DNA of 64,000 bases, from assembly GCF_054482525.1 (NCBI RefSeq), contig NZ_CM137006.1. One strand, written 5' to 3'. Every line of letters starts with the position of its first letter. The stretch's first letter is position 1. The notes beneath the pieces are model-generated. The model did not search any database and was not told the DNA's origin. It saw nothing but the letters and a program-made list of their open reading frames with translations. Shown piece by piece: positions 62,385 through 62,723 of this stretch. The position numbers and the translations under genes are program-made.

Positions 62385-62550
62385 GATTTTTCCTCTTTCA
62401 CATAGTGGGTTCCACAGCAAAGAGACGCGGAACCCTGGAGTTGTTTAGGTATCCGGATGAATAACCAGACCGCAGCCGTGGCGTTGCATCGGATGAGATG
62501 GCGTATAAGTTCTACCTTTTGGTAAGACATGTCAACCCGAAATCTGAAAT

Positions 62551-62560
62551 TGGTTAACCA
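62551..62560. promoter_or_regulatory. TGGTTAACCA perfect palindrome (UxuR/ExuR-type operator candidate)
   Basis: Lies in divergent uxuA / gntP control region. Confidence 0.5.
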
Positions 62561-62656
62561 CATCACAAGAATTTCACTCTCATGGTTGTTGCTGCAAATT
62601 GCAGCAAAGGGTAATCGATGGTTATTGATCAGAGGATGTGACATTCATCGCAACAA

Positions 62657-62666
62657 TGGTTGACCA
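62657..62666. promoter_or_regulatory. TGGTTGACCA near-palindrome (second GntR-type operator candidate)
   Basis: About 60 bp upstream of gntP ATG. Confidence 0.45.
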
Positions 62667-62723
62667 ATTTACATAACATGTCGCCCAAAATAACAACGGT
62701 TCAACCAGGTAAGGTAAAACGTT

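Follow-up and report, generated by a model that had tools for sequence, protein, structure and literature searches.

The 339-bp spacer that separates the divergent uxuA and gntP genes of E. coli can be read as a two-operator switch carrying one more element in its middle. Two CRP-dependent promoters would stand back to back, each with one UxuR-type operator, and a 19-bp perfect dyad lying between the two promoter modules, in an otherwise neutrally evolving stretch, would act as an auxiliary operator. We give this picture, taken as a whole, an even chance of being correct, its parts being of unequal strength. The two UxuR-type palindromes are very probably UxuR/ExuR operators; they are already known and bring nothing new. 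The dyad is probably, though by no means surely, under selection, and we place the same measured confidence in its being functional. That it is the operator of a protein is a proposal to which we give slightly less than even weight.

The analysis covered a 64-kb window of an E. coli genome, that is, the whole stretch of 64,000 nucleotides under study. The ATG codon of uxuA is located at position 62384 on the minus strand and that of gntP at position 62724 on the plus strand. Because it is bounded by these two codons, the interval 62385-62723, in which three palindromes had been noted, corresponds exactly to the whole divergent spacer. The annotation of W3110 identifies the flanking genes as uxuA (mannonate dehydratase) and gntP. 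uxuAB is the mannonate dehydratase operon and gntP encodes a fructuronate transporter. A 340-bp query containing the spacer was 100% identical to strain PCN033 and was found in 5404 of the 5426 complete E. coli genomes. A textbook control region for sugar acids, the uxuAB/gntP switch matters for gut colonisation by E. coli, and UxuR operators have been reused in biosensors.

The spacer was scanned for the CRP core TGTGA-N6-TCACA, retaining matches of at least 7/10. Such matches were observed at positions 62387, 62552 and 62637 only. A RegulonDB-derived table places CRP at -57.5 of uxuAB and at -41.5 of gntP, and the second of these sites falls under a CRP genomic SELEX peak (PMC3105977, supplementary files 4 and 5). 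Core scan and table together thus give two CRP sites that the initial annotation had left out of its list. Transcription start sites (TSSs) were derived from the tabulated CRP positions, at 62686 for gntP and at 62502 for uxuA; the TSS tables of two published papers contain no entry for uxuA or gntP. The elements of the two modules are as follows.

62552-62567, minus strand: CRP1 site TGTGATGTGGTTAACC, activator site of uxuAB at -57.5, overlapping Box1 (see below); 8/10 core match.
62637-62652, plus strand: CRP2 site TGTGACATTCATCGCA, activator site of gntP at -41.5; 9/10 core match.
62502-62535, minus strand: uxuAB core promoter, with putative hexamers TTGACA (62535-62530) and either TAGAAC (62514-62509) or GAACTT (62512-62507); TSS at 62502.
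62674-62686, plus strand: gntP promoter, with putative -10 element TAACAT (62674-62679); TSS at 62686.

The hexamers of both promoters are those that we infer from the sequence. The uxuAB promoter block is nearly invariant across Escherichia and Citrobacter, the gntP promoter block is invariant among gntP-type Escherichia, and CRP2 is kept in Citrobacter and Edwardsiella. This layout, with two CRP sites, one per promoter, each accompanied by a local repressor site, is that of the class of divergent CRP-dependent sugar-acid promoters (PMC3105977, Figure 4C), of which gntP-uxuAB is itself a listed example, with no difference to report.

An exact string search returned all three palindromes at the positions first reported (62551-62560, 62657-62666 and 62589-62607). 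The first two form the cores of the following boxes.

62547-62564, no strand: Box1, core TGGTTAACCA at 62551-62560; centre at 62555.5, about -53.5 from the uxuA TSS; overlaps CRP1.
62653-62670, no strand: Box2, core TGGTTGACCA at 62657-62666; centre at 62661.5, about -24.5 from the gntP TSS.

Sites of the FadR subfamily are A/T-rich palindromes with TKGT/ACMA boxes, separated by 3 nt in the case of ExuR and others and by 2 nt in the case of UxuR and others (PMC4494728). Both TGGTTAACCA and TGGTTGACCA read TKGTNNACMA with 0 mismatches and have the 2-nt, UxuR-type spacing. For each box, this motif spacing is what would favour UxuR over ExuR. The comparison was extended to 18 bp using AAATTGGTATACCAATTT, an operator through which a biosensor responds to UxuR and fructuronate (PMC8092373). 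Box1 matched it at 13/18 positions and Box2 at 14/18, with one perfect 8-bp half per box; likeness to AAATTGGTATACCAATTT alone is a weak feature, because 2.35 matches with 5 mismatches or fewer are expected per window. Similarly, TKGTNNACMA was found four times in the 64-kb window for 3.9 expected, three of the four matches being in the two uxu intergenic regions (59604, 62551 and 62657). Since the core count matches expectation, the evidence for the boxes is one of placement and conservation, not of count. Indeed, both cores are invariant in the spacers of seven Escherichia and four Citrobacter. The 18 bp of Box2 show 0/18 differences among gntP-type Escherichia, and Box2 is also found in Citrobacter and upstream of Edwardsiella gntP.

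Published data point to the same protein. In genomic SELEX, purified UxuR bound at the gntP/uxuA spacer only (PMC5934670), and deletion of uxuR derepresses uxuAB and gntP (PMC10016265; PMC9369180). Overall, core, spacing, match to AAATTGGTATACCAATTT, invariance and SELEX binding bear out the proposal that the two 10-bp palindromes are GntR/FadR-type operators. Box1 and Box2 resemble the hexuronate UxuR/ExuR operators by their TKGT-NN-ACMA core with A/T-rich palindromic flanks, by their position inside hexuronate-gene promoters, by their retention across genera and by the binding of UxuR to the spacer in vitro. They differ from AAATTGGTATACCAATTT-like UxuR operators in that each has a single perfect extended half.

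The position of each box with respect to its promoter would set how repression proceeds. Box1 overlaps the CRP site at -57.5, so that UxuR bound there should block CRP activation of uxuAB (anti-activation). Box2 lies between CRP2, at -41.5, and the gntP -10 element, so that UxuR bound there should block RNA polymerase at gntP (steric block). Geometry is the basis of both proposed mechanisms.

The gntP leader contains a third box of the FadR type, which had also been left out of the first list of sites.

62697-62707, no strand: box CGGTTCAACCA in the gntP leader, +11 to +21 from the gntP TSS, with 3-nt GT..AC (ExuR-type) spacing.

Two of four Citrobacter species and Escherichia sp. MOD1-EC6475 (L097) have this box in perfect form, TGGTTCAACCA; in Edwardsiella piscicida, the corresponding position is occupied by a 2-nt-spaced (UxuR-type) box, AAATTGGTTGACCAAAT. 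The GntP proteins of E. piscicida (L094, 2119-2500) and E. coli fall in one 90%-identity cluster, and in E. piscicida gntP is divergent from a gene for a GntR/FCD regulator, not from uxuA. Upstream of Edwardsiella gntP, the same CRP site is accompanied by two UxuR-type boxes, which suggests that gntP moved together with its own promoter module. UxuR-type boxes were also observed at other loci. One, AAACTGGTCAACCAAATA with core TGGTCAACCA, is located in the uxuB-uxuR spacer (59600-59617) and is presumably an autoregulatory operator of uxuR. Two more are found in a sequence carrying uidR and uidA (L098), upstream of uidR (ATTGGTTAACCAAT) and of uidA (AATTGGTTAACTAAT).

The distance between Box1 and Box2 is 106 bp, about 10 helical turns, in the seven Escherichia spacers and 104-105 bp in the four Citrobacter spacers. 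The sequence between the two boxes is unalignable between the two genera. Since 104-106 bp are held over unalignable sequence, length is under constraint and sequence is not. This suggests that Box1 and Box2 may cooperate, possibly via a DNA loop. The kept spacing also fits a fixed back-to-back promoter geometry, and looping between the boxes is offered as a hypothesis. A spacing kept over unalignable sequence gives a clean handle on whether UxuR works by looping.

The third palindrome is located between the two boxes.

62589-62607, no strand: 19-bp perfect dyad TTGCTGCAAATTGCAGCAA, of the form TTGCTGCAA-A-TTGCAGCAA; centre at 62598.

Its centre is at -96 from the uxuA TSS and at -88 from the gntP TSS. 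It stands 42.5 bp from the centre of Box1 and 63.5 bp from that of Box2 (about 4 and 6 helical turns), which is 10.5 bp from their midpoint, and between CRP1 and CRP2, at 38.5 and 46.5 bp from their respective centres. Because each arm is itself a TTGC-N-GCAA palindrome, the dyad can also be described as two 10-bp direct repeats TTGCWGCAAA (62589-62608). With its 9+1+9 arrangement, it is longer than any other perfect dyad of the 64-kb window. The likelihood of such an object was evaluated with Markov-shuffled windows, counting dyads with arms of at least 9 and a gap of 0 or 1. Such dyads were expected 0.52 times per shuffled window, and at least one was present in 39% of the shuffles. Chance could therefore account for the palindrome taken by itself.

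The dyad might thus be without function, a chance palindrome in a length-constrained spacer, with an apparent conservation due to sampling noise. Its perfection in E. coli would then have arisen by a single transition from an E. albertii-like 18/19 ancestor, possibly by template-switch correction of a quasi-palindrome. In addition to the frequency of such palindromes in shuffled windows, several observations go in this direction: Citrobacter and Edwardsiella have no counterpart, E. albertii and L097 have one or two symmetry-breaking changes, and neither a second copy of the dyad, nor a motif match, nor a literature mention was found. Polymorphism within E. coli leaves room for the same explanation. 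The exact 19-mer is present in 5308 of the 5426 E. coli genomes, as a single copy in each, and the surrounding 40 bp are identical in 2654 genomes only. In eight strains chosen across that range and aligned, every SNP of the 40-bp stretch is located outside the dyad. At the SNP density of the spacer, however, only about 1 SNP is expected in 19 bp, so that E. coli polymorphism alone cannot demonstrate constraint.

Divergence between lineages speaks against an absence of function. Five gntP-bearing lineages were compared: the window, Escherichia sp. 93.0816, a divergent strain labelled E. coli (L096), Escherichia sp. MOD1-EC6475 (L097) and E. albertii; E. fergusonii, E. marmotae and E. ruysiae are outside this sample. 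A search with a spurious ORF overlapping the spacer contributed two Escherichia lineages. Among the sampled lineages, divergence from the window at fourfold-degenerate sites of uxuA is 11-27%. The dyad is perfect in the window, in Escherichia sp. 93.0816 and in L096; two transitions are observed in L097 and one in E. albertii. In all, 3 of its 19 columns are variable, as compared to 25/46 in the flanks (Fisher P=0.004, five related lineages) and to 46% of the fourfold-degenerate sites of uxuA and gntP (binomial P=0.006, same five related lineages). From these comparisons, the flanks evolve at an approximately neutral rate and the dyad more slowly. Moreover L096, L097 and E. albertii, which diverged separately, each have diverged flanks around a conserved dyad. 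All three substitutions in the dyad are transitions that break its symmetry, and none is compensatory. Overall, the evidence of selection is modest yet consistent, and we regard a functionless dyad as possible but rather doubtful.

Within the spacer, the two patches beside the dyad (62570-62588 and 62608-62636, with 25/46 variable columns) evolve at an approximately neutral rate, nearly all the rest being conserved. In the left patch, 9 of 20 positions differ between E. coli and E. albertii.

The initial annotation had named absence of the dyad from orthologous regions as an observation that would count against it. The answer obtained is a divided one. In four Citrobacter species having the same uxuA/gntP arrangement, there is no dyad and the central spacer is unalignable. 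The dyad was not found either in the Edwardsiella gntP promoter, in which the CRP site and the two boxes are present. With respect to these four Citrobacter species and to Edwardsiella, the dyad is thus restricted to Escherichia. Within Escherichia, it is conserved in gntP-bearing lineages and degraded in lineages devoid of gntP. The latter have a haplotype, hereafter called nanM-type, in which nanM-nanS is fused to the gntP promoter and leader, with a junction near 62708, and in which nanC, the whole fim cluster and gntP are missing. It was observed in L002, a species representative of GTDB bearing the label E. coli, and in three complete genomes of E. coli (6EVA, UTME-7 and ET201; sequences L089-L091).

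L002, 3584-4000: nanM-type haplotype.
L089, 2483-2940: nanM-type haplotype.

The nanM-type haplotype retains Box1, Box2, both CRP sites and the 106-bp spacing. Its dyad is changed at 4-5 of 19 positions, a rate identical to that of the flanks. Decay of the dyad at the flank rate is observed only in this haplotype, where gntP was lost, which is a further argument against a dyad without function. These data are consistent with a dyad function tied to gntP, as seen in one or two independent events only. Because the core of the gntP promoter is retained, nanMS may be under CRP/UxuR control.

The same data bear on the idea that the dyad is an architectural element to which no dedicated protein binds. 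It would serve as a flexible or bendable hinge, in which two TGCA steps flank an AAATT centre, or as a cruciform-prone site, placed near the apex of a 106-bp loop between UxuR-bound boxes or between two CRP-induced bends. Its location close to the midpoint of the boxes is in keeping with such a role, as are the operator spacing of 104-106 bp held while the central sequence varies and the confinement of dyad conservation to loci whose two promoters retain the native arrangement. However, Citrobacter holds the spacing with neither the dyad nor a common sequence, and looping by UxuR is hypothetical. The nanM-type haplotype has both boxes 106 bp apart and yet its dyad decays. Finally, a role in flexibility should accept many sequences and should not conserve 16 of 19 positions. 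Overall, we consider a purely architectural role to be improbable.

The dyad had been described as an element distinct from the two operators, with a cognate factor that could not be named. Both statements hold. The motif scan of the spacer found no TKGT/ACMA core in TTGCTGCAAATTGCAGCAA and neither CRP nor FNR cores over it, and no known E. coli motif fits. Other copies of the dyad were searched for. None of 18 nt or more was present in the 5426 E. coli genomes, none that was meaningful in phages and plasmids, and no second site within 4 mismatches in the 64-kb window. The dyad sequence and its core were found in the literature searched in no bacterial regulatory context except that of Vibrio LuxO sites. 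To our knowledge, there is no LuxO in E. coli. The LuxO (NtrC-type) sites of Vibrio qrr genes, TTGCAnnnTGCAA (PMC10328515), have in common with the dyad the TTGCA/TGCAA pentamers and a short A/T-centred palindrome. They differ from it by the order of the half-sites, which is reversed in the dyad (TGCAA-N-TTGCA), and the dyad has no sigma-54 promoter nearby. As regards its shape, the dyad resembles tetO, the TetR operator, and the Fur box, as a 9-1-9, odd-centred 19-bp inverted repeat having the length expected for a dimer or a pair of dimers. The sequences are unrelated, however, and no protein of the TetR or Fur family is linked to the dyad.

Several candidate regulators were rejected. UidR/GusR is a TetR-family regulator of the Escherichia-specific glucuronide operon, and the uidR and uidA control regions contain no site similar to the dyad. 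In 20 kb around uidRABC, the best match to the dyad has 6 mismatches and is located outside the control regions, and no TTGC-N-GCAA unit is present. For the other candidates, the dyad was compared by hand with their consensus sequences. The spacing is wrong for CytR, PurR and the wider LacI family. Cra has the outer GCTG..CAGC in common with the dyad, but its site has the wrong length. Fis would need other bases at positions ±3 and ±4. NsrR, LexA, the LysR-type T-N11-A motif and a sigma-54 -24/-12 promoter do not fit the dyad, and the PutA motif GTTGCA is matched at 5/6 positions only. A marbox is matched at 12/15, yet the match reaches into the variable flank. CpxR is a weak lead: GCAAA-N5-GCAAA in the dyad matches GTAAA-N5-GTAAA at 8/10 positions.

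Among these proteins, CytR deserves further consideration because of the position of the dyad between two CRP sites. A CytR-like protein of the LacI family could act there as an anti-activator contacting the flanking cAMP-CRP complexes. CytR anti-activator sites are located between CRP sites in the deoP2, udp and nupG promoters. The pentamer TGCAA was reportedly described as the CytR half-site by Pedersen and Valentin-Hansen in 1997, and the core of the dyad is TGCAA-A-TTGCA. In a CytR operator, two GTTGCATT octamers are separated by 2-3 bp, and the CRP sites on either side of them stand about 53 bp from each other; in deoP2, the second CRP site is at -40.5. The other deoP2 CRP site is listed at -93.5 (PMC3105977, supplements). 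As compared to such operators, each arm of the dyad matches the GTTGCATT octamer at 5/8 positions only, the octamers would overlap by 1 bp in place of being separated by a gap of 2-3 bp, and CRP1 and CRP2 are 85 bp apart. In addition, uxuAB and gntP are not nucleoside-related, unlike the CytR regulon, and no link of CytR to these genes was found in the literature searched. A CytR-like site therefore appears very improbable to us.

We return to the reading that we prefer, in which the dyad would be an auxiliary operator for a DNA-binding protein active as a dimer or as a tandem dimer. That any protein binds there is something that we infer. The protein would exert its action from about -88 on gntP and/or from about -96 on uxuAB and, given distances of 42.5 and 63.5 bp, would occupy the face of the helix on which the two UxuR boxes also lie. 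Against this reading, a simple repressor would not be expected to bind with centres as far upstream as -88 and -96. In broader terms, an auxiliary operator or architectural element specific to the lineage is the most likely identity of the dyad. A more specific version can be put forward tentatively, as one that we find somewhat unlikely. The dyad would be the single genomic target of a regulator new to hexuronate metabolism and would supply the switch with a third input, through a phased three-site complex causing repression or anti-activation. According to this proposal, the dyad would have arisen within Escherichia and become dispensable on deletion of gntP. If the operator reading is true, the dyad represents a species-level regulatory addition, maintained by selection, in a region thought to be fully described; its importance would be modest.

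A function at the RNA level was also considered, with the dyad folding into a hairpin within an unannotated RNA transcribed across the spacer. Folding predicts an 8-bp stem with a 3-nt loop. On the minus strand, the predicted energy is -10.4 kcal/mol (z -4.0); on the plus strand, where the stem is lengthened by five flanking pairs, it is -11.9 kcal/mol (z -2.2). Two of the three natural substitutions would give G-U wobbles in the minus-strand RNA. On the other hand, both derived TSSs (62502 and 62686) are directed away from the dyad, no promoter-like or terminator-like site was found in 62300-62800, dyad included, and the stem is not followed by a T-run. Finally, the dyad has no match in Rfam at E up to 10, and none of its changes is compensatory. 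We regard an RNA hairpin as highly unlikely.

Some further observations concern the uxuA side of the spacer. A stretch of about 79 bp in the 5′ leader of uxuA (about 62405-62484) is missing from Citrobacter but strongly conserved among Escherichia. Within it lies a 7-bp inverted repeat, GGGTTCC...GGAACCC (62407-62413 and 62429-62435), about 22 nt upstream of the ATG and immediately 5′ of the Shine-Dalgarno sequence. This repeat may correspond to a structure of the leader RNA. RNA polymerase with sigma-32 (RpoH) alone gave a genomic SELEX peak of intensity 5.0 at the gntP/uxuA spacer (PMC5493296). Near the uxuA start, CGCCATCT (62496-62503, minus strand) resembles the sigma-32 -10 element CCCCATNT; in Citrobacter it is conserved in the form CGCCAT. 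Finally, the spurious ORF mentioned above, 102 aa long (62336-62644, minus strand), spans the spacer and overlaps the start of uxuA. It figures as a hypothetical protein in several assemblies of Escherichia and Shigella (P0135-P0139) and is almost certainly a gene-calling artefact.
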